Part shown: piece by piece, positions 242 to 35,825 of the stretch | How positions within the stretch are numbered: position 1 is the stretch's first letter | How the letters are laid out: the number at the start of each line of letters is the position of its first letter | Virus genome (UHGV): UHGV-1357953 | Reading direction: 5' to 3' (one strand) | Length of the DNA: 40,340 bases | DNA from: a virus | Translations under genes and position numbers: made by a program | The notes under the pieces: model-generated | What the model was told of the DNA's origin: nothing | Databases searched by the model: none | The model's input: the letters and a program-made list of their open reading frames with translations, nothing else

Positions 242-457
242 TTAAGCGGCTTTGTGTTCCGGCGGGAACACGTCATCAAGACTGACTTTTGCGCCTAACT
301 TGTTTAGGCACGCAACAAGAGCACGGCATGTTTTAAGGTCTGGGAAGCGACGACCAGATTCCCAATGTCCGATAGCTCCCTGTGTGCATCCAACTGCCTT
401 AGCAAGTGTTGTTTGAGAGATATTCAGTGACTCTCGATATTTTCGTAGGTTGCTCAT
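242..457 (-). CDS. cro: Cro-like HTH repressor (71 aa)
   Basis: Small HTH protein (QTTLAKAVGCTQGAIGHWESGRR) divergent from cI; GGAGG RBS before ATG at 457; the listed 128-aa ORF is an upstream extension. Confidence 0.75.
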   Translation of the reverse strand: MSNLRKYRESLNISQTTLAKAVGCTQGAIGHWESGRRFPDLKTCRALVACLNKLGAKVSLDDVFPPEHKAA

Positions 458-483
458 ATGCCCTCCATAGTAACCATAACGCA

Positions 484-512: not shown

Positions 513-555
513 ACAAAAAATACATCTTGTGCATGGATGATTTTAGTACAGAGCG
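490..555. promoter_or_regulatory. Candidate oR operators (GTACTTTTAG at 496..505; inverted copy TTTTAGTAC at 541..549)
   Basis: Same motif family recurs at the pL region (1362..1387); position between divergent cro and cI. Confidence 0.35.
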
Positions 556-568
556 TAATAATAAGGGT

Positions 569-1228
569 ATGAAAATGAAATGGTATGAACTGGCTAGATC
601 CAGAATGAAAGAGCTCGGCATAACTCAAGAGAAGTTAGCCGAAGAGCTTGGTATGACGCAGGGTGGAATTGGTCACTGGTTGCGCGGATCTCGTCATCCA
701 TCTCTTGACGAGATTGGTGTGGTGTTTAAATACCTTGGTATTGATAACGTCTCATTCAACCACGACGGTACATTTTCACCTGTTGGCGAATACTCATCTG
801 CCCCCGTTAAAAAACAATATGAGTACCCTGTTTTTTCTCATGTTCAGGCCGGGATGTTCTCGCCTGAGCTTAGAACCTTTACCAAAGGTGATGCGGAGAG
901 ATGGGTCAGCACAACCAAAAAAGCCAGTGATTGTGCGTTTTGGCTTGAAGTTGAAGGTAATTCCATGACCGCGCCAACAGGATCCAAGCCAAGCTTTCCT
1001 GACGGGATGTTAATTCTCGTTGACCCTGAGCAGGCTGTTGAGCCAGGTGATTTCTGCATAGCCAGACTTGGTGGTGACGAGTTTACCTTCAAGAAACTGA
1101 TCAGGGATAGCGGTCAGGTGTTCCTACAACCACTAAACCCGCAATATCCAATGATTCCATGCAATGATAGCTGTTCCGTAGTAGGGAAAGTTATCGCTAG
1201 CCAGTGGCCTGAAGAGACATTTAGTTAA
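569..1228 (+). CDS. cI: CI immunity repressor: distinct N-terminal HTH domain fused to a lambda CI-like C-terminal S24 domain (GNSM Ser and FKK Lys present)
   Basis: C-terminal ~105 residues ([58 protein letters not shown]) match lambda CI as recalled; start at 569 or 575 (ORF listed from 527). Confidence 0.9.
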
Positions 1229-11122: not shown

Positions 11123-13261
11123 TCATAAAATAGATTTCGTCTTTGTAACAATAACATCTACAAAATCGCCTGCAGATATAGCTGATGGTACTGTATCTGC
11201 AAGAGTAATCTTTCCTGAAGAGATGCTTTGCACATCTAATAATTTATTTTCAATCCCATCCGTATATACCAATTTGATATCACTGAGTGGAGGGTAATAA
11301 GTGATTGTTCCTTGGTATACATATATTTCACTACCTGAAATCGATTTCACTACATACCTGCCCCTTACAAGATTAATTTTGAGTTCAGATAAATCGGTTT
11401 TATAACAGGTAATTCCTGAACCAATGTTAGCCATACTAATATCAGTATCACTATAATAAGTAAGTGCTTTCCCTTGTTTTAAAGTAAAAGTATTTTTACT
11501 TTTCCTTGGTAAGGATGTGCTATTTTTGTAATATCTACCAGTAAAGCATAGCCATGAAAATGCAGTATTCACTACATTACCACCAGAATACACAGCTAAA
11601 CGAATTGCACTAACTGGAACCCCTTCATTATTAATCCTGATCTTAATGGAAGAAATATTAACAGCAGTGACATACCTATGGTTGGCAGAATCCCATTGCA
11701 TAGAAGAAGTTATGGCTTCTGTTTGTGAGGTTATGACATTCCCATCTCTATCTAATGCATACAGGTAAATGCGAAACGATGCCGTATCTGCTGAGAATGT
11801 AAACATATCACCATTTCTTACTGGTACATCTCCAGATTCCCATAACAACCCAAAATTCCGCATAAAAGCAAACTTAGAAGAAACCAGGTGACGGATATTA
11901 TATAAACCATCAACATCTGTTTGATATGCTAATGCACCAACTTCTCCATTGTTAGCACTGGATATAAATGGGGTGTTAGCATTTAAAGAAAACAATGTTA
12001 CTTCATCGGATATATTTTCCTGAATATGAAATACTGCATTCCCCTTGCCATTATCAGTTACCTCGACATAAGTGTAAGGCGATGGATTGTATGGCTCATT
12101 TGTATACGCAGGAGATGAAAGCCATGTAGCTTCAATTGAGTTATTCCACGTATATTCACCAAAGTTAATTATCAACTGTTGGTTAGTTGGGGATGATGGA
12201 TATCGTTCAAAACGAAACCCGTAGAAGTAATTGTTATCACCTCTTTGAATATCAATTTTACCTGCCCCCTCCATAGTTCCACCATAAAACTTATTGTGGT
12301 TATGATGATATGGATTATCAGCGAAAATGATATTATTCGTACGATTCAGATAAAAATAGTTTTCATTTATCCATCCTTTCTCAACTCCAAGAAAATGAAT
12401 TGTATCGACCTTTTTCAGGTTAAAGGTTGAGTATGCTATTGAATAATCCGTCGATGCCACCGAAGCATTATAATTTGCATATAACTGTAAGTAGTCGCAA
12501 CGCTCAATGTTTATATGCTGCCCTTTTGCCCCGATAATACGAATATCCGGTGTCGTTTCAGATGAAATACCAGAATTTCTGATAATCGTTCCGAAGTTTT
12601 GTCTTGGGTTGTTAGGGTTTGATGCATTCCCGCCAAGCAATACCCCTATTCCTGAGTGGGATATGGTAAAAACAGCATTGGTCATTTCGAGGCTGACATT
12701 ACGAAGATTTAATGTCGCCGTAATAATAAAATTACCTTCCGCTCGTAATGTTCTGGATGATTCTCGTGCATATTCTGCAGCCAAGATCAATGCAGATGTA
12801 TCATCTGTTATACCATCGCCTTTTGCCCCCCACCCTCTTACATCACAATCGTCCCTCCACCGAGATATCTGCAATTCAGGATATTTTTTAGCTCCATCCG
12901 GGTCTTCTAATTGCTGCCGTAGTTGATCAGGGTCATACTTCAGCACATTTGGAAAATAGAACTGCTGCGCACCACATGCATCATAAACAGCCATAGAATG
13001 GCCTTGCACAGTTACGAATTTGGCAATCTGTCCGTTATATACTGGATACCCAGCGGCATTGATGACGATTGGCTGTGCAACAGGAACGTGAGAACCATCT
13101 TCGTTCTCAACATAGACCTGAATCTGGTTATCAGGATTTACCGGGTCAGTGTCAATTTTACCGATATAAATTTTGCCATTAGCTACGGCTTTAAAAGAAC
13201 GCGCCATAGTGAAGAGTTGCGAAGGCATGCTCACTACAACATTGGCTGTAATGTCTGTCAT
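11123..13261 (-). CDS. Tailspike protein (712 aa): P22-type head-binding N-terminal domain, divergent receptor-binding body
   Basis: First ~110 residues ([42 protein letters not shown]) match P22 tailspike as recalled; remainder not recognised. Confidence 0.9.
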
Positions 13262-13336
13262 TTAATTTGCTCCAGATACAAGGAATCGCCGCAGCATGGC
13301 TACGGCTGGTATTTGTTGCATACCGAAACGGTACGA

Positions 13337-13365
13337 TTGTTGATTTGTACAGTAGGTTTTACGAT
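13337..13365 (+). promoter_or_regulatory. Candidate mnt promoter: -35 TTGTTG, 17-bp spacer, -10 TACGAT
   Basis: Hexamers upstream of the Mnt-like gene in the divergent tailspike/mnt region. Confidence 0.3.
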
Positions 13366-13393
13366 GCCATTCCACCCATTTGGTGAGGCATTG

Positions 13394-13651
13394 ATGATGT
13401 ACAGCAAATACGATGAGGCGCAGTTCCACTTGAGGCTTACGCACGAGTTGCACGCCAAGATTAAGCAACGTGCAAAAATGAATAACAGGTCTATCAATTC
13501 CGAAATTGTGGCTACGATGGAAGAATCGCTCTCCAAACCATCACCTGTAAGCGGGTATCGTGATGAAGAAGAGAGGCTGGCCTCATTAATCTCGGAACGA
13601 GTAAAAGAAGTTGCGGCTGAAATTCTAAGGAAAGAAAAAACCCGCGATTAA
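13394..13651 (+). CDS. mnt: Mnt-like ribbon-helix-helix repressor (85 aa)
   Basis: FHLRLTHELHAKIKQRAKMNNRSINSEIVATMEESLSKPSPVSGYRDEEERLA aligns with P22 Mnt as recalled; the listed 242-aa ORF is an upstream extension. Confidence 0.7.
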   Translation: MMYSKYDEAQFHLRLTHELHAKIKQRAKMNNRSINSEIVATMEESLSKPSPVSGYRDEEERLASLISERVKEVAAEILRKEKTRD

Positions 13652-13668
13652 GCGGGTTTAGTTTTCAT
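13636..13668. terminator. Bidirectional intrinsic terminator between convergent mnt-like and antirepressor genes
   Basis: aacccgc/gcgggtt hairpin flanked by an A-run upstream and a T-run downstream. Confidence 0.55.
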
Positions 13669-13677
13669 TATAAAATG

Positions 13678-14406
13678 TTACGCCACATTTGAGCCATGTA
13701 GTAGGTGTTGTAGTGCTTTAACGCCTTCAGAATTGTAACGGAACGCCTCTACCTGTTTGCTGGAATGCGCCGATTTATCCAGGAAGAACTTCCCGTACTG
13801 CTCAGTTTTGAGGTTGTTTGCGTTAGCAATGCGACCAATCTTGTTGGCCGTTACTCCAAGCTGCTCTGCAACCTCCCCTGCTGAGTAGTAATGCTCTTCT
13901 ATTGCCGGAAGAGGTATTGCATTAAAACCAACGAGCGGGTTGATTATACTTGCTGCCGCTGTCTGCTTTGCCTCAGGCGCAAGATTTGGCATCAGATCGA
14001 ACAGATTGGTAACAGCTTCAACCGTCATTTTCAATGTTCGCGCTTGACGATACTCAACAAGTCCACTCGCTGATTTACCGCTTTTAATGTGCGCTTCTTG
14101 CATACTTTCAAGTTGGTCTACCAGTGAGCGGCGAACGGCTTTTGACTCGCGAGCGGCAACTCGCAATGCTTGCTTGATTGACATCTCAATGATAACCATC
14201 GAAGTTTTGTTCGCTTTTTGCACTACACTTTTTGTGTAGTGCTCTCCATCCAATTCATCTTCAATTTTCTCGATGAATTTGTTATTACGAACCTCCGGCT
14301 CACCGCACTGTCTACGAGCCTGATTTACCATCTCAAGAAGGCGCTGGCTGTCAATGGTTTTATCCGTGACAACGGATCCGATGTTTGCTACATTCTTAAA
14401 AGTCAT
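13678..14406 (-). CDS. Antirepressor-like protein with KilAC-type C-terminal region (242 aa)
   Basis: ATG 14406 with AAGGA RBS; C-terminal ..AGEVAEQLGVTANKIGRIANANNLKTEQYGKFF resembles the KilAC pattern. Confidence 0.55.
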   Translation of the reverse strand: MTFKNVANIGSVVTDKTIDSQRLLEMVNQARRQCGEPEVRNNKFIEKIEDELDGEHYTKSVVQKANKTSMVIIEMSIKQALRVAARESKAVRRSLVDQLESMQEAHIKSGKSASGLVEYRQARTLKMTVEAVTNLFDLMPNLAPEAKQTAAASIINPLVGFNAIPLPAIEEHYYSAGEVAEQLGVTANKIGRIANANNLKTEQYGKFFLDKSAHSSKQVEAFRYNSEGVKALQHLLHGSNVA

Positions 14407-14444
14407 TAGGCATTCCTTATGTGGTAGTAAGGGTGTGACATAGG

Positions 14445-14476
14445 CCGCCAGCAGCACACTGGCGGTTTTCTTTTTG
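14445..14476 (+). terminator. Plus-strand intrinsic terminator inside a minus-strand operon; candidate 3' end of a sar-like antisense RNA
   Basis: ccgccag/ctggcgg stem then ttttctttttg; no plus-strand CDS feeds it. Confidence 0.45.
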
Positions 14477-14494
14477 CGCCGTCCGGCGCACCAA

Positions 14495-15121
14495 TCAATG
14501 AATCCATTCCTCGCCGCGCAGTTTTGCCAGCATTGGCTGAGCGTTCTTTACGACAAAATTGTTGGTATCAAGATTCTTCATTTCACGAAGAAGTGATTTC
14601 TTGGTTTCTTCTGACATATAGCGAGTCTCATATGCGATATCGTAAATCCTTCCTGAAAGCTCAGAACAAATTTGCTTCATTCCTGGGTAGATGTGTTTGC
14701 ACATTTGTTGACTCTTCTCCATCCACAATTGTAAGTAGCAGAGATTAACCAGTTCTTCGTCAGTAAACTGTTTTGCAATCGGTGAGCATTCTGCCTGCCG
14801 ATCCAAAATATCCAGCACCCAGCGGCGGAACTCTTTGGCTACCGGAGTGCGAGCAAACATCGCGATTAGGTGGGCACCGCGTAGTGAGAAAACTCGCACT
14901 TTTTTGCGATAATTTCCTGAGGTACTCACTTCGAGTACCTGAGTCATTCCAGCGCTAAACTCATCGCTATACTTGTTATAAATCATTGTTACTGCACGAC
15001 TATTTGCGTATTTAAGTGCAGATGCAATATTAGATGATGTAAACCAAACACCATGCATATCACGGGTGGGCACCAACTCAACTCCGTGGAAGTTGTATTC
15101 TGATTTTGCTACAATATTCAT
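14495..15121 (-). CDS. ant: Antirepressor with Bro-N-like N-terminal domain (208 aa)
   Basis: NFHGVELVPTRDMHGVWFTSSNIASAL is Bro-N-like; ATG 15121 with AAGGA RBS. Confidence 0.6.
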   Translation of the reverse strand: MNIVAKSEYNFHGVELVPTRDMHGVWFTSSNIASALKYANSRAVTMIYNKYSDEFSAGMTQVLEVSTSGNYRKKVRVFSLRGAHLIAMFARTPVAKEFRRWVLDILDRQAECSPIAKQFTDEELVNLCYLQLWMEKSQQMCKHIYPGMKQICSELSGRIYDIAYETRYMSEETKKSLLREMKNLDTNNFVVKNAQPMLAKLRGEEWIH

Positions 15122-15194
15122 GTTAGTTTCCTTGCATACGGTTACTGACATAGAGGCCCGGTTTGTGTTCGCGCACTGCCGGGCTTCACTATTT

Positions 15195-15368
15195 TTATTG
15201 GATGACAACATCGCCCTTTGCCTCAAGTTTCATCAATAACTCCATTCGATAAGCTATCTCTGCCTGAATTGACCTATGGCATCTTTTTGCTGATTCGCGG
15301 ATATGTGAATCAACCTTTTCTGTAAAACGAACCTGACGCGGCTTGATGGAAGATATCTTTTCAGTCAT
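15195..15368 (-). CDS. Arc-like ribbon-helix-helix protein (57 aa), first gene of the antirepressor operon
   Basis: Hand-translated MTEKISSIKPRQVRFTEKVDSHIREASKRCHRSIQAEIAYRMELL; position equivalent to P22 arc. Confidence 0.45.
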   Translation of the reverse strand: MTEKISSIKPRQVRFTEKVDSHIRESAKRCHRSIQAEIAYRMELLMKLEAKGDVVIQ

Positions 15369-15467
15369 TATGCACTCCTGTTTTTAAAAAACTCATAATC
15401 TCACTTTTTGTAGTTTGATTATTCACTCACACTCAGTATGAGTCAATGAATTTTTTATGGTGAACTA

Positions 15468-16109
15468 ATGAATTTTGACGATCAATTCCCATCAAGAGTA
15501 TCTCTGGCAAGACAGTCCAGGGGTATGACGCAGGCGCAGTTGTCAAAATTAGCTGGTGTTGTTCAACGTCAAATAGCTGCATACGAGGGTGGTGAGGCTA
15601 AACCACGGCTTCGGGTATTGCAGGCATTAGCCAACGCATTAGGTACTACGGCTGAGTGGTTAGCTCTAGGTGAAGGTCAGGGTCCGGGAACAAAAAACGT
15701 CATGCCTGACGTTCTGGTAAAGCAAATACCAATCCTCAAACTAGATGAAGTTATGCATTACCTAAACACAGGTGAACATTCATCGTCTAGATTTCATCCG
15801 GCAATATACAATGTTGGTGACTCTGCATTTGCATTGACTATTGAAGGTGAAGCTATGACTACAAGTTCAGGTATTAGTTTTCCCAGAGGATCGGTTGTCA
15901 CGTTCAGCCCTCTAGTAAAAGCTAAAAGCAAAGATTATGTAATAGCATCATTGGATAAAGAACAAATATTGAGCTTCAAACAGGTTTACATTGGTGAAAT
16001 AGAGACAAACCTAGTATCCCTAAACCCAATGTATCCTAATATTCTTGTTAGAAATGAAGATGTTAGTATTTTGGCAACCGCAGTTTACCTTGAAATCCCG
16101 TTGCTTTGA
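15468..16109 (+). CDS. Second CI/LexA-type repressor (HTH plus S24-like domain) with the catalytic Ser replaced by Ala (EGEAM)
   Basis: N-terminal HTH (MTQAQLSKLAGVVQRQIAAYEGG); C-terminal S24-like fold; gct at 15850..15852 encodes Ala where the G-(D/N)-S-M nucleophile is expected. Confidence 0.75.
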   Translation: MNFDDQFPSRVSLARQSRGMTQAQLSKLAGVVQRQIAAYEGGEAKPRLRVLQALANALGTTAEWLALGEGQGPGTKNVMPDVLVKQIPILKLDEVMHYLNTGEHSSSRFHPAIYNVGDSAFALTIEGEAMTTSSGISFPRGSVVTFSPLVKAKSKDYVIASLDKEQILSFKQVYIGEIETNLVSLNPMYPNILVRNEDVSILATAVYLEIPLL

Positions 16110-16169
16110 TATCCTTTAGGAAGCGACACATTATCATCTGGTATCCTGCGCAAAACTAAGGAGGTTGGT

Positions 16170-16499
16170 GTGCTTGAATGGTTTCTGTTGGCTGCATTAG
16201 TCGTTTCTGGTTTGGTGTATGAGTATCGAATGCACTCTCTAACAAAAAAAATAGGAATTCTAGAAAACGAATATTGTGCTCTCAAATCCTCACTGGAACG
16301 TGAGCAAGGAGACTTAAAAATCTCTCTGTCTAGCATTGAGAGTTCTATAGAGAGCCTAGAGGATAAGGTTGATCGTATAAAGAATGAGGATATTCATGAT
16401 ATTAAGGACGACATATCCTTCTTAAAATCTTGGTTGAAAAATGTTGGTAAAATTGCCACATCAACACGAGATAAGCTCAATCCATCCATGGATGACTAA
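16170..16499 (+). CDS. Membrane-anchored coiled-coil protein (109 aa), GTG start
   Basis: TAAGGAGG RBS 5 nt before GTG; N-terminal TM helix then heptad-like repeats. Confidence 0.45.
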   Translation: MLEWFLLAALVVSGLVYEYRMHSLTKKIGILENEYCALKSSLEREQGDLKISLSSIESSIESLEDKVDRIKNEDIHDIKDDISFLKSWLKNVGKIATSTRDKLNPSMDD

Positions 16500-18659
16500 T
16501 TACTCCTGTGCCATTCCGCTTAGCGATGCCACAATTCCAGCCCTTGCTAAACGCTGGAACTCTTCGTTTCCTAGTGCCTCGCGTATTGCTTTTACGGCGG
16601 CCTTATTTGCCATAAATCTGCGTTCAGCCGCCGCTAATGCTTCTTTACTTCCGCCAGCTCTTACTGCTTTCGTGGCTTCCCGAACTGCTTTCTCTATCGC
16701 ATATCGACCGCTACGCGTGGTGGCAATTTTAGATACAGCGCCTTTTAACCCAGCGCCAACTAAAGCACCTGCGGCAGCGCCTGCAATGCCTCCTCCAGCG
16801 CCACCAACAATGGCACCTGATGTTGAATTGGCAATTGCATTTAACACTGTTGATGTGACGTTGGATAAACCAGCATCCAGATCGCGTAGTACATTGGCAG
16901 TTCTACCTGTTCTTTCAATATACTGCTGAGGTTTCACTGCTGCTCTTGCAAGAGTGCCATATGCATCAGCAATTCTTCCAAGCTCTGAGGAATATCGGCT
17001 AATGGCTTTTACATTTTGTGGAGTCAGTATCTCTGCGATATGGTTAATTCCTGCTGCATCAGCTTTGCCACCACGTACACCATGCGAGATAGCATCTTGC
17101 AACATTGATGATATAGCAGGAACACGCTCTGATTCTGGCAGCGCGCGGATCATAGAATGGAATCCAGCAGGACCATTAAGACCTTTAGCTGACGATGATT
17201 GAAGGGATTTTACTCCATTCGTAATCAGTGCATCTGTTGCCAAATCACGCCCGAAAACAGACTCTGCACTCTCTTGTGCTGATAACCTCGCTTTAGACAG
17301 ATCATTAGCTTTCTGCCAGTCATCAAGAAATCCGCCGTTTTCCGCCATTGTGCGCATATCATCAGTAATTGCCCGGCGTATTTCCCCTGCTCTCCTTGCC
17401 GCATTTGCCTCTCCGCTACGCTTATATTTTTGCTCCGCATCAGCAAATTTCGCTCTCCATGCTTTCATGCCATCAAATGTTACTCCACCTTGATTGTTTG
17501 CCTGAACAAACTGTTTCATTTCAGGAGTAAGCGGTATGCCAGCAGATCGCTCTGCCTGAATAACGGCATTACCATTTAGCATTCTTGCTTTTTGATTTGG
17601 CATTGTTGACCGCACGTCATCCCATGCCGCGCGCTCAGCATCCTTCATCTGATCAAGATTTTGAAGAATCCTTTGTTTTATAGCCGCACTTTTTTCTGAT
17701 GCCGTTCCAGATGCGGCCCCAAATTCATCAAGGTTTCGACTTAACTTTGATGATATTTCGTTAAATGCTGCCTGATGGGCATCCTGAACAATCCCTGGTG
17801 TTGATGCCAATGCGCCTTCGGCTTGTGCAATTCCACGACTTCCAGATCGCATTCCTGGTGTTAATGCGTTTATATCAATTCCAGCAGACTCAGCCGCTTT
17901 TGCTACATCTTCGGACACATTAGCGGCCTGACTGGCAATTGACTGACGCCCAGCACCTGACTTTGCCATCCTGGAAACATCATTAGCAGAATTCAGTGCT
18001 GCACCACCAAGAGCCTGTGAAACCCTTGGCGCAATAACGCGCCCGACACCTGAAAGAACGCCTTGAGCACCAATATTGATACCACCGTTAATGGCAGCAT
18101 TTTGTGCAAAATCACCCTCCTGATTTGCAGCATCAGCAAGAGAACCGGCAATCATGTTTCCTGCGGAACCGATGTCTCCTGCGAGCTTTGCTGGCGCTCC
18201 AGCAGCTTTTGCTGCTGTGCCAATTGGCAGGAGATACCCACCAATTGTTTCACCGGCTTGCGCGTAAGGGTCTGTCGGTCGATCGACTGGACGATAGACA
18301 TCATCCAAAACCTTGGGGCCACCAAGCCCCTGGCTGATTGCATTAATCAGACTTGCGCCACCCTGCAATACGTCAAATGGTATGTTTACCAGACCACGAC
18401 CAGCCTGCTCTGCAATTTGCCCTGCACTTTGACCACCAGTGAGCCAATCGCCAGCTTGTTGCATCAATGATGGTTCTTCTTTCTGCTGCTGAGGCGGAGG
18501 GTATGCTGCATAAAACTGATCTCTTGCTTCAGCCCATTTGTCACCAGCCTTAGGGGCAACAACCTCATCAAAATATTGCGCTTGAGCCTGTGCTTTCTGT
18601 TCTTCAGTTAACGCCTGATACTGTGGAGAAGCGATAACATCTTTCCATGCTTTAGCCAT
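16500..18659 (-). CDS. Ejection / internal virion protein, P22 gp16-like (719 aa)
   Basis: Gly/Ala-rich large protein last in the gp7-gp20-gp16 block. Confidence 0.7.
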
Positions 18660-21172: not shown

Positions 21173-22125
21173 CACTGCTCCGCGATTATCTTGATGGTTG
21201 TGGCAGTAAACGCCGCCACATTTGACTGGATGGTTAACGTACTGCCATTTGTGGCAAGAAAGCCGTCTTTATCCACGCTGAAGAACGTAGCTAACAGGAT
21301 GTTATCGGTTGTTGTCGCCGAGTTGCGACTGCTTACCAGTGTGTCAGGAACAGATCCGGAAAAGGTTAGCTGCATTGACCTGTTTGCGGTTCCGCTGGGC
21401 CACGTCCCGACAATCGACAGCTTGAAGAACAGGGTTTTGTTCTCGTTGAAAACAACCATCTTGTTGTTATCAGTATCGAAGAATGGTGCCAACGTCCCGG
21501 ATGACGGCGTGAGCGTTTTCAGCAGGCTAACAAGGTTGGTCGGCGCTGTTGGAATGGTTACCGATACTCCTGAGTAAACAACCTCTGATTTCTTGCGCGT
21601 GGTGGCATACTCAAGCGCAGATATTCTTGTTGAGTGATCACCAACTGTGCTTTGTAGCGTCGAAATACTTCCCTCTGCCGCTGTGAGCCTGGTATCAAGT
21701 GCGTTGATATCGGTTGTATTCTGAGTTATTCGCGCATCATGGTTTGCTAACTCAGATTCATTGGCAGCAATTCGCGTCTCGTGATCAGCCAGCTCTGTTT
21801 CGGCAGCCGTAATCCTTGTTTCATGATCTGCAAGAGTGCTTTCCGCTGCTGCGATTCTATGTTCATGATTGACGAGAGTTGCTTCAGCAGCAGCAATTCT
21901 GGATTCATGGTCTGCAAGGGTGACATCCTGCTCATCATTCTTCACCTGTGCATCATAAGCTCCCTTCCCTGCTTCGTTGGCCTTGTTAGCCACGTTACCA
22001 ACATCAGTACCCTGTGCGATAACGTACAGCAGATATGACTGCGAGAAGATATTGCGTGGAAGGACTGATGTGTCGAGTCGTGTAGCCTGAATGATTACCG
22101 GCTCATTGAGATTCGAATCAGCCAT
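21172..22125 (-). CDS. Tail needle, P22 gp26-like (317 aa)
   Basis: N-terminus [56 protein letters not shown] matches P22 gp26 as recalled; DHE.RI heptads. Confidence 0.85.
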
Positions 22126-23543
22126 TACTCGATCCTTATCTGGCAGCCAGACAGAGTGACAGGTGACTTCGTGATAACGCGCAATTTGAAGCCGACATTT
22201 TTCCTGATGCGCCCGACTCGCTTCCACAAAACACGCTTGTCGTAAACGAACGGTTCATTCTGCTCAATCATCTGCTCACGACCGTAATTGATGCCATCAG
22301 TGGTTGCCGAGAGGAACAGGCGGTCGGCGTACTGAGCGACCCCCGTCGATGATTCCACCTCCAGATCAAAGCATCTGGCGTTATCTGCTTTGAAGAGTGG
22401 AGTAAACAGCAGGTGTTCTTGCTGTAGCCCATACTGGCTGCTGATGTCGAACTGCAATTTTCCGGTCACGGACTCCAGCTTATCGCCGCACGTTATCTGA
22501 TTGCCTTCGTAAATGAAGTCGATAGCGCGGTACACATCGTCATACAGGCCTGTTTTCAGCACACACCATTGCGGACCATTGGCGCTTGAAGATGCGTCGT
22601 ACACAAGGACGTGACGCGAAAGATGGATAATCAGCAACTCATGAGCATCAAACCGCAACGATTCCATCACACCATCAGCCAGTTCATCAGCAGTGTAGGA
22701 GCGGAGGATTTTCTCAATGCTCGCGCTGGCGATTGGTGATACCTGACCGGAGCCGATGATGTATACAGACGGAGCACCTGTTGCCGGATTGCTGATAAAC
22801 GCATAGGAATCAGCAAACGGCGTTTTGCAGTAAGTTCCGGCAATGCCTTTCTGCACCATCAGTGATGGCTGTGCGACATACAAAGCGGCACCAACGGTGG
22901 TTGCCCCAGTCAGGGAAAAATATTCAATCGTCGATGAACCAAAGCAGACGATGAAGTCTCGCCATGTTCCGATGCCGAGGATACCGTCCGGCTGCGATTC
23001 TGCGCGATATTGTGCGCTGTAACGGTCAGGATGCGATTCGTCTTCAGGGTCAGTGATAAACCATGAATCCGTGCCGTCTTTTGACCACGCATAACGCCCA
23101 CGTAAACGCGTAATGTCGCGAACCGAACCTAACTCATACTGAGTGAATCCGCTGTCTGTAGGCCAGTTTGAGACTGTTTTAACCGTTCCATCATAGCGAT
23201 ACTCGACCAGTTGACCATTAACGCCTACCGCCTGAGATGTTCGACCATGCGCCATTGATACGCGACCACTTCCGGCAACATCACCGACCTCGCTTTCGCC
23301 CTTATACAACTTGCCACCGCAAACGCGATAAACAGCATTCTGCGCCATGTTGTACTCGACACCGCGCGATACACCATTCACATCAGAGCGTTTGGCAATG
23401 CCAGGGAATGAGCGAAGATATCCACTGCTGTTGAGGATTTCTTTGGGGGTTGCCAGCATATTCACTGGCAGATAGTCGATATAGTCGGCGTTTCGAAAGT
23501 CTTTGCCGACACCTTTCATAAGCGGAAGTTGCTGAATCGGCAT
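22125..23543 (-). CDS. Tail hub protein, P22 gp10-like (472 aa)
   Basis: Synteny and size. Confidence 0.75.
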
Positions 23544-34813: not shown

Positions 34814-35100
34814 GACTTAATCTTCCCCTCCCTCAGCAGTATCGCCTGCGTCCTGATCACGCCTTCGAGGTGGTAAAGTCTGGCGTCTTTGTTGTCGATA
34901 TTATGGGTGCGTCGGTCGATCTCCGCGTGGCAGTCACTACAAGCCCATGCACCGATCAGGTCGTCAGGCTTCATTCCCGTTCCGCAAATTCCAGCCATCC
35001 GGTAATGTGCCAGAACTGTAGTTTCAGGATTGCCATTGCATACGCCGTAAATACGTACCTGGCATTCTCTGTTGCGCGCTTCTTTGCGTAGGTTAGCCAT
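34810..35100 (-). CDS. ybcO: YbcO-like / DUF1364 protein (96 aa)
   Basis: MANLRKEARNRECQVRIYGVCNGNPETTVLAH...CSDCHAEIDRR resembles E. coli YbcO as recalled. Confidence 0.6.
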   Translation of the reverse strand: MANLRKEARNRECQVRIYGVCNGNPETTVLAHYRMAGICGTGMKPDDLIGAWACSDCHAEIDRRTHNIDNKDARLYHLEGVIRTQAILLREGKIKS

Positions 35101-35825
35101 TAAGCAGCCTCTCCTGTTACTTTCAGCATTCCGTTATCGAGCAGCTTTCTGGTCAGCCACTGTTGGCCACGTCCGGTGATTTTTGTAGTGAACGATATCT
35201 GTATTCCGTGATTTGTGTTGACCGCTGTTTCTTTCACTGTGAAATAGCCGCGATCCATATATTCCTGCATTGGCACATTGCGCCGGGAACCTGAAGCAAT
35301 AAGGATTTTGTGATCGCGCATCCACGCAAACAGTTTGTTTGGACCAATTCCAACAACCTTTGCAAAGTTTCCAATCAAAATTCCGCTGGCCTCGCCAACG
35401 CGATCGGCAAACTCAACTTTAGGTGCGGCAATTGCGAGCTGGTTTTCCAGTTGCATTTTCTGCTCAGCAAGGTTAGCAGCAAGGCGCAACGCTTCTGGTA
35501 GCGTTTTGGGGATATTAACCGCAGCTTCTTCAAGCTCTCGCCAACGGTCAACAAGGCGAGCGGTGAACTCTGGCGACAACTGGGCGACGACAATAATGCT
35601 GTCTCGCTTTCCTTGTTCGCCCTCGAAGACGTAGAAATCACGCTTCCCGGTAATAACACCTAAATCATTGATTATGTTAGTGTGCTGCAATGCAGGAGGC
35701 TTGATAACGCCACGTTTCACCAATCTATCTATGGATACTTTTACATTGCTATGGCGGCTTTCTACCAACTCAGCGATTTCAATGCTTGTCATTTTGATGG
35801 CATTGCCATTTATTAACTCATTCAT
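35100..35825 (-). CDS. Rha/KilAC-type antirepressor-like regulatory protein in the nin region (241 aa)
   Basis: C-terminal ..ILIGNFAKVVGIGPNKLFAWMRDHKIL.. is KilAC-like. Confidence 0.6.
   Translation of the reverse strand: MNELINGNAIKMTSIEIAELVESRHSNVKVSIDRLVKRGVIKPPALQHTNIINDLGVITGKRDFYVFEGEQGKRDSIIVVAQLSPEFTARLVDRWRELEEAAVNIPKTLPEALRLAANLAEQKMQLENQLAIAAPKVEFADRVGEASGILIGNFAKVVGIGPNKLFAWMRDHKILIASGSRRNVPMQEYMDRGYFTVKETAVNTNHGIQISFTTKITGRGQQWLTRKLLDNGMLKVTGEAA

Follow-up and report, generated by a model that had tools for sequence, protein, structure and literature searches.

A putative mobile immI-type antirepressor cassette with a CI-like repressor in the place of Mnt in a P22-like phage of E. 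coli

The virus genome UHGV-1357953 (40,340 nucleotides; 'the window' below means this whole stretch) belongs to an E. coli P22-like phage of the Lederbergvirus type and is complete and circularly permuted. We propose that positions 13678-16109 form a mobile cassette of the P22 immI type in which a CI-like repressor, here called Rep, would take the role of Mnt and would not be cleaved in the SOS response, while the Mnt homolog next to the cassette would be an orphan from a second immI. We put the probability of this reading at about 0.6.

Genes of the cassette and its likeness to P22 immI

The late genes of the window lie on the minus strand, and the region fills the slot between the gene 16 homolog (16500-18659, minus strand) and the tailspike gene (gene 9 homolog; 11123-13261, minus strand), which is the position of immI in P22. 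The gene order is tailspike (minus), mnt (plus), a three-gene ant operon (minus), rep (plus) and gene 16 (minus). An earlier reading of this DNA, made from the letters alone and called here the sequence-only reading, had described this order and six open reading frames (ORFs); the order and every ORF, to the base, were recovered. Profile checks upheld five of its six domain calls, namely Mnt, Bro-N/P22_AR_C, Arc-like ribbon-helix-helix (RHH), helix-turn-helix (HTH) plus S24, and the Rha/KilAC protein of the nin region. The mnt gene and the ant operon converge on an intrinsic terminator that can serve both strands (13638..13659; 8-bp stem, T-run on each strand).

The second gene of the operon (14495..15121, minus strand) encodes a 208-residue protein with Bro-N (2e-10; 41.7 bits against a Pfam cut-off of 25.6 bits) and P22_AR_C (5e-13) domains, which confirms its call as a Bro-N antirepressor and adds the second domain. 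It aligns with P22 Ant in the C-terminal part only (29% identity over 69 residues). The first gene (15195..15368, minus strand) encodes a 57-residue protein that, taken alone, gave weak matches below the Pfam cut-off (ParD_like 8e-4, Arc 0.011). A profile built from 19 family members placed Arc (2e-4 and 0.01), Mnt (0.013), AmrZ and CopG at the top of the known structures, a database search tied the family to PF03869 carriers named 'Arc family', and the protein can be aligned with Arc through an RS.N.EI motif. The Arc-like RHH call is therefore sound by way of the family profile and of PF03869 in family members.

The third gene (13678..14406, minus strand) had been labelled KilAC-type, and this label fails. 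The 242-residue product has no Pfam match at E <=0.01 and no NCBIfam match, a sequence search of solved structures returned nothing, and hhalign against the KilAC protein that the phage itself encodes in its nin region gave a probability of 0.3%. The protein looks Rha-like in its N-terminal domain, with a MerR/RacA-type winged helix at the C-terminus. An ortholog of 42% identity carries the Pfam pRha domain, and the PHROG family is named 'anti-repressor' (7e-101), an annotation given by PHROG only. A terminator-like hairpin with a 10-bp stem and a T-run (14442-14468, plus strand) lies between the antirepressor gene and this gene, antisense to the operon.

The junction of the arc-like and ant genes encodes a predicted homolog of the P22 antisense RNA sar, with promoter, start and terminator. 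The RNA (15107..15200, plus strand) would be about 78 nt long, against about 70 nt for sar as counted on the P22 sequence, and would run across the ant ribosome-binding site. Its promoter has an extended -10 element, TGcTACAAT, at 15107-15115, with the start near the ant ATG (15119-15121), and its terminator is a hairpin at 15153-15187 followed by a T-run. The plus strand over the junction folds into two hairpins, the second with the T-run behind it (-36.2 kcal/mol, z -4.9). The alignment with the Psar/sar DNA of P22 reads TTGC-TAnAnT-ATTCATGTT, then TTACTGACA, then GAAGCC...GGCTTC. In 12 sequences the -10 element TAnAnT and the ant start codon were invariant or nearly so, and 7 of the 12 stem pairs of the terminator showed compensatory changes. 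An Rfam search of 13000-16700 gave chance-level matches only.

The sar homolog argues that the cassette is a true relative of immI in which Mnt has been replaced by Rep, and it carries the immI-like view of the region beyond what the sequence-only reading had offered. Besides sar and the slot, the cassette and P22 immI share a small RHH gene at the head of the ant operon, the P22_AR_C domain of their antirepressors and a strong TTGAC-type ant promoter opposite a divergent repressor gene. They differ in the divergent repressor, which is of the 434/lambda-CI type (HTH plus S24) in the cassette whereas in P22 it is the RHH tetramer Mnt, and in the N-terminus of the antirepressor, which is Bro-N here and P22_AR_N in P22. 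The cassette also has the extra Rha-like/winged-helix gene, its Arc-like protein is only ~25% identical to Arc, and it moves as a unit into non-P22 phages.

Rep homologs at 35-49% identity were followed into their contigs, and each contig held rep on one strand and, on the other, a 56-58-residue Arc-like gene followed by an antirepressor-family gene. In two collection scans the cassette was found at about 90 Enterobacterales prophage loci, with Rep identities of 35-100%, in Yersinia, Klebsiella, Pantoea, Rosenbergiella, Xenorhabdus, Morganella, Lonsdalea, Leclercia, Salmonella, Providencia and others. Nearly all loci have a small gene ~99 bp upstream of rep, the 57-residue Arc-like gene holding this position in nearly every case, and in the annotated loci an antirepressor-family gene lies downstream. 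The antirepressor varies in type among loci (Bro-N/P22_AR_C, P22_AR_N, ORF6N or pRha) and is often followed by a homolog of the 242-residue protein. Three genomic settings recur: the 'ant morons' of P22-like phages, lambda-like tail clusters, where the cassette sits between tail-assembly and tip genes, and sites beside integrases, as in Salmonella. A P22-like phage of Leclercia matches the window gene for gene, the Mnt-like gene included. Collectively, this distribution points to 13678-16109 being a self-contained, horizontally mobile antirepressor cassette of the immI type.

Phage JEP4 (L001, MT740315) encodes a Rep 100% identical to that of the window. In its deposited record Rep, with a later start, is 'repressor protein C2', the 242-residue homolog is 'KilA protein' and the Bro-N antirepressor is 'Rha protein', and none of these labels fits the domain evidence. 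Providencia phage PSTNGR2lys also carries the cassette, with all its genes labelled 'hypothetical'. About 25 of 5426 complete E. coli genomes have the cassette, strain HS among them. The 'HS-1' type ant moron in the P22-like prophage of this strain matches the window DNA at 96% identity over 88% of the region and is thus the same DNA, although an IS3 element splits the HS copy. Villafane et al. (2008) named the slot the 'ant moron' and showed the genes of the HS-1 type in their figure as unique boxes. They pointed to an 'apparent lack of arc genes' and stated that the control mechanism must differ from that of P22 (PMC2629481). The present analysis differs in identifying an Arc-like gene, a sar homolog and a CI-like repressor, the candidate controller, in this DNA. 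This phage is thus not alone in having the repressor complement that had been thought unusual. The arrangement is common and, since 2008, can be found in databases and in one figure; it is a variant of a known system and does not represent a new kind. What the present analysis adds is the assignment of its parts, the sar homology, the mobility of the cassette across phage types, the pseudo-protease state of Rep in the lineage of the window and the covariation of a Rep residue with a promoter motif. A literature search for a functional study of the cassette found none.

P22 immI is a textbook regulatory circuit whose natural role is still debated. An arc-sar-ant core that travels as a cassette, and in which a CI-type protein can take over from an RHH tetramer as maintenance repressor, would speak for the modularity of this circuit. 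The family also offers paired natural variants (Ser and Ala repressors, single and tandem immI, podovirus and siphovirus hosts), and, in JEP4, PSTNGR2lys and many prophages, several genes now called 'hypothetical', 'C2', 'KilA' or 'Rha' receive working names from these assignments.

Rep and its candidate operator at the ant promoter

Rep (213 residues; 15468..16109, plus strand) matches Pfam HTH_3 (9e-13) and Peptidase_S24 (1e-12), and its matches in the structure database (PDB) were 434 repressor for the N-terminal domain and the C-terminal domain of lambda CI. As had been proposed, the divergent partner of the ant-operon promoter is a CI/434-like HTH plus S24 protein in the place of Mnt. The further description of this protein as 'LexA-type' holds for the fold but not for catalysis. 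In alignments with LexA and with the CI of the window, the nucleophile position (LexA S119) is occupied by Ala129, in GEAM (codon GCT at 15852-15854), while the general base (LexA K156) is retained as Lys171, in SFKQ. The linker, IPILKLDEVMHYL, has no Ala-Gly or Cys-Gly, and the position of the cleavage site reads DEVM-HY. The Ser-to-Ala changes S119A in LexA and S149A in lambda CI abolish cleavage. Because Ala replaces the catalytic Ser and there is no Ala-Gly site, the Rep of the window has probably lost self-cleavage and would not be cleaved in the SOS response.

Among 54 distinct sequences of the Rep family, 47 keep both Ser and Lys. Ala stands at the Ser position in four, three of the window clade and L085, and Lys is changed to Arg or Met in six; L085 has neither Ser nor Lys, so the two groups overlap. 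Catalytic residues have been lost several times independently, with Ser to Ala in two clades, Lys to Arg, and Lys to Met. Ala-Gly was found in 1 of the 54 only, and in many relatives VQA is retained, with R, A, S, K or H as the next residue.

Rep shares the HTH_3 N-terminal and S24 C-terminal domains with the lambda CI, 434 and P22 C2 repressors, but differs from them in having Ala for Ser and no Ala-Gly site, and in controlling, as we infer, an accessory operon (ant) and not the early lytic promoters. Besides Rep, the phage has a separate, canonical CI (569..1228, plus strand), in which VQAG, GNSM and FKK align with A84-G85, S119 and K156 of LexA and which is predicted to be SOS-cleavable. 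The LexA-controlled antirepressors of the Gifsy phages, coliphage 186 (Tum) and Salmonella phage SPC32H resemble the cassette in having an ant gene outside the main immunity region and an S24-family repressor. The cassette differs from them in that its repressor is encoded by the phage and is not host LexA, the protease nucleophile is absent from Rep, and its ant promoter has no LexA box (no match to CTGT-N8-ACAG in 15369-15467, even with one mismatch).

The 99-bp region between rep and the arc-like gene holds a sole strong promoter-like site, P_ant (15418..15446, minus strand), which reads into the arc-like gene and consists of TTGACT, a 17-bp spacer and AATAAT (10/12 consensus match). Almost all of 58 distinct intergenic regions likewise have TTGAC and, at this spacing, a -10-like element. 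The -35 and spacer of P_ant contain a candidate Rep operator, O1 (15429..15445; TGACTCA-TAC-TGAGTGT on the minus strand), with a 13-bp perfect dyad, ACTCA-N3-TGAGT, at its center. Across the family, a dyad of 17 bp anchored on TGAC was enriched: 3.4 of its 8 pairs are symmetric, compared with 1.6-2.5 for dyads of other lengths. It fits many lineages, not all, and one clade seems to follow an 18-bp register. About 50 bp from O1, in the P_ant leader, lies an inverted copy of the outer half-site of O1 (AAAACTCATA; 15388..15397) that covaries with the right-hand motif across lineages and is a candidate for a second Rep site or for the -35 of the rep promoter.

The bases that follow TTGAC tracked residue 33 of Rep (context V-V-X-R-Q). 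They were [A/G]CA at 25 of 25 loci where this residue is R, TCAT or ATAT at 21 of 22 loci where it is Q, and TCAA, TCTA or TCAT at all 9 loci where it is P, S, H or A. Residue 33 lies in the recognition helix, and its counterpart in the alignment with 434 repressor is Gln28, which contacts bases. Because residue 33 covaries with the bases beside the -35, the pattern is suggestive of Rep binding at P_ant next to the -35, and the pairing of residue 33 with TGAC(T/A)CA offers a simple, directly checkable specificity rule as a candidate recognition code.

A search for an operator that tracks the beta-strand classes of the Arc-like protein found only lineage-specific palindromes around the left motif. 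In the P_ant leaders of related loci (L007, L009, L053, L068, L095, L041) these palindromes enclose or follow the left half-site; they differ in sequence but keep their dyad character, and could be an operator of the Arc-like protein or a hairpin of the 5' leader. Elsewhere in the window, a 15/17 copy of the candidate operator with 14 contiguous identical bases (ACTCATACTGAGTG) lies at 23130-23146 (plus strand), inside the ORF of the gene 10 homolog (22125-23543, minus strand). This is conserved coding sequence in 34 P22-like viral contigs, and the copy could be a coincidence or a secondary site.

The Mnt homolog

The 85-residue product of the gene at 13394..13651 (plus strand) matches Pfam Arc (3e-15) and is 45% identical to P22 Mnt over 73 residues, C-terminal part included (E 2e-23), and the call of a Mnt-like RHH repressor is confirmed. 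The sequence-only reading had regarded this gene as displaced, which is not borne out: it has the canonical orientation, and related phages carry both complete systems in tandem. In locus L024 (1-4700) a full P22-type immI lies by the tailspike gene, with ant 86%, arc 88% and mnt 78% identical to P22, and the cassette follows. L012 (676-4642) and L026, from related E. coli P22-like phages, resemble it in having P22-type mnt, arc and ant in tandem with the CI-type cassette. Because these relatives keep arc and ant beside mnt, the mnt of the window is, by comparison with them, a remnant of a separate P22-type immI that would have lost arc and ant, both missing in the gap between mnt and gene 9, and it lies outside the mobile cassette. 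Other arrangements also occur: L017 and L020 have no mnt, and in VSe13 mnt adjoins the tailspike gene in the same orientation, with an ant fragment only. L012 also has, after mnt, a gene for a ClpP-like protease (Pfam CLP_protease 2e-11). Morons with mnt only are present in ST64T and ST104 (PMC2629481).

Mnt homologs accompany the cassette in P22-like genomes only. Their alleles span 44-100% identity while Rep stays identical and the intergenic region almost so, a pattern that speaks against an action of Mnt on the cassette promoter. The Mnt of the window is most likely an orphan repressor that acts on its own promoter or on matching ant promoters carried by superinfecting phages. A search for its operator found no motif common to the mnt upstream region and the cassette promoter region (15369-15467). 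The palindrome TACCGAAACGGTA at 13321-13333 occurs only once in the window, but VSe13 does not retain it, and it was rejected as a Mnt operator. The intergenic region between mnt and the tailspike gene also contains a near LexA box (13337-13352, minus strand; CTGT-N8-ACAA) that VSe13 shares and that L009 has with other bases in the spacer; genome-wide, near-matches to the LexA box occur at chance level.

Proposed mechanism, alternatives and neighbouring genes

In the mechanism that we propose, P_ant would drive all three genes of the operon, for the Arc-like RHH protein, the Bro-N/P22_AR_C antirepressor and the Rha-like/winged-helix protein, up to the terminator at 13638-13659. In a lysogen, Rep would act as the Mnt analog, bound to the dyad over the -35 and spacer of P_ant, and the antirepressor would be off. 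On infection of a Rep-free cell P_ant would fire, and the antirepressor would inactivate CI-type repressors, be it that of the phage itself or that of a resident prophage. Antirepressor synthesis would then be shut down by the Arc-like protein and the antisense RNA. Rep would not be removed by the SOS response, so that in SOS induction the phage would depend on cleavage of its own CI. Against antirepressors of superinfecting relatives, the lysogen would be protected by both Rep and the orphan Mnt.

Several points weigh against this proposal. Expression, binding, cleavage and the target of the antirepressor are all inferred, and the mechanism is drawn by analogy with P22. The 17-bp O1 dyad has only 5 of 8 symmetric pairs in the window and 2 of 8 in some relatives, and the counts linking residue 33 to the motif were taken across loci without correction for shared ancestry. 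The equivalent spacer position in P22 is the site of the Arc operator, and in the cassette the Arc-like protein, not Rep, could be what binds. A search for the rep promoter gave no 9/12 consensus match on the plus strand of the intergenic region; two hand-drawn placements were tried and neither was settled on. Since Ser and Lys are both present in 47 of 54 relatives, and VQA in many, the Rep family may be cleavable in general, and the window clade could respond to something else.

That last point leads to an alternative in which the cassette is an SOS-triggered module: Rep would be a private LexA whose self-cleavage, prompted by RecA*, would allow the antirepressor to be made and the prophage repressor to be inactivated. 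The Pfam S24 domain of Rep, the Ser-Lys dyad in most relatives and the many VQA sequences at the lambda-CI cleavage position agree with this, and there is a parallel in the antirepressors of the Gifsy phages, 186 Tum and SPC32H. For the window we nevertheless consider it improbable, as Rep has Ala129 for Ser and DEVM-HY at the site, Ala-Gly is so rare in the family, the catalytic residues have been lost repeatedly and independently, and the phage already has a CI that is cleavable by sequence. A speculative extension, to which we would give a somewhat better but still low chance, is that the cassette family is a portable antirepressor switch with a private LexA-like sensor. Most relatives, with Ser-Lys and VQA, would release the antirepressor on DNA damage, and the E. 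coli P22-like lineage would have turned the sensor into a locked pseudo-protease. If this were true, tandem immI modules would form a code of immunity and anti-immunity between prophages during polylysogeny.

The remaining alternatives concern which protein controls P_ant, or whether the region serves immunity at all. The spacer dyad could be the operator of the Arc-like protein, with Rep binding elsewhere, for instance at the left motif, or acting mainly on its own promoter; the arc operator of P22 begins right after the TTGAC of Pant, which favors this. Within a single beta-strand class of the Arc-like protein (PMAYRM, QISYRP or PISYRP), however, the motif changes with the Rep residue and not with the Arc-like protein, and we regard this assignment as unlikely. 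It is harder still to make the Mnt homolog the true maintenance repressor of the cassette ant promoter, with Rep regulating, for example, the downstream membrane protein or incoming phages. Although this protein is a clear homolog of P22 Mnt and its gene adjoins the operon, most settings of the cassette have no Mnt gene, Mnt alleles of only 44-69% identity stand beside a 100% identical Rep, Mnt has its own arc partner in L024, L012 and L026, and the mnt upstream region and 15369-15467 have no motif in common; on these grounds we hold control by Mnt to be very unlikely. A toxin-antitoxin or abortive-infection unit, composed of an RHH antitoxin and a toxic protein of the Bro/KilA type, would have no part in immunity. 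Some KilA/Bro proteins are toxic, and ParD_like is the best single Pfam match of the 57-residue protein. PADLOC, however, returned generic HTH matches and no defence system, the RHH family bridges to Arc and not to antitoxins, and the P22_AR_C domain and the sar homology tie the cassette to P22 immI, which leaves this explanation highly improbable. Control by Rep, in an immI-type cassette, remains the reading that we prefer.

Outside the cassette, the third antirepressor-like gene that had been noted in the nin region (35100-35825, minus strand) was confirmed, with Pfam ANT/KilAC (1e-32) and pRha domains; its product is unrelated in sequence to either cassette protein. In the primary CI region (527-1228, plus strand) the C-terminal domain of CI looks near-identical to that of lambda CI and is fused to a different N-terminal HTH, and a cro-like gene (242-460, minus strand) is divergent from it. 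Directly 3' of rep is an ORF for a 109-residue protein (16170-16499, plus strand) with a strong ribosome-binding site and a promoter-like site at 16106-16134. The protein has an N-terminal hydrophobic helix and a coiled-coil and matches phrog_5962, a family of unknown function. The DNA of this gene matches the hkcB/hkcC area of HK620, and its position is the sieA slot of P22. It is found with the cassette in a few loci only, so it may be a lysogenic-conversion or exclusion gene.

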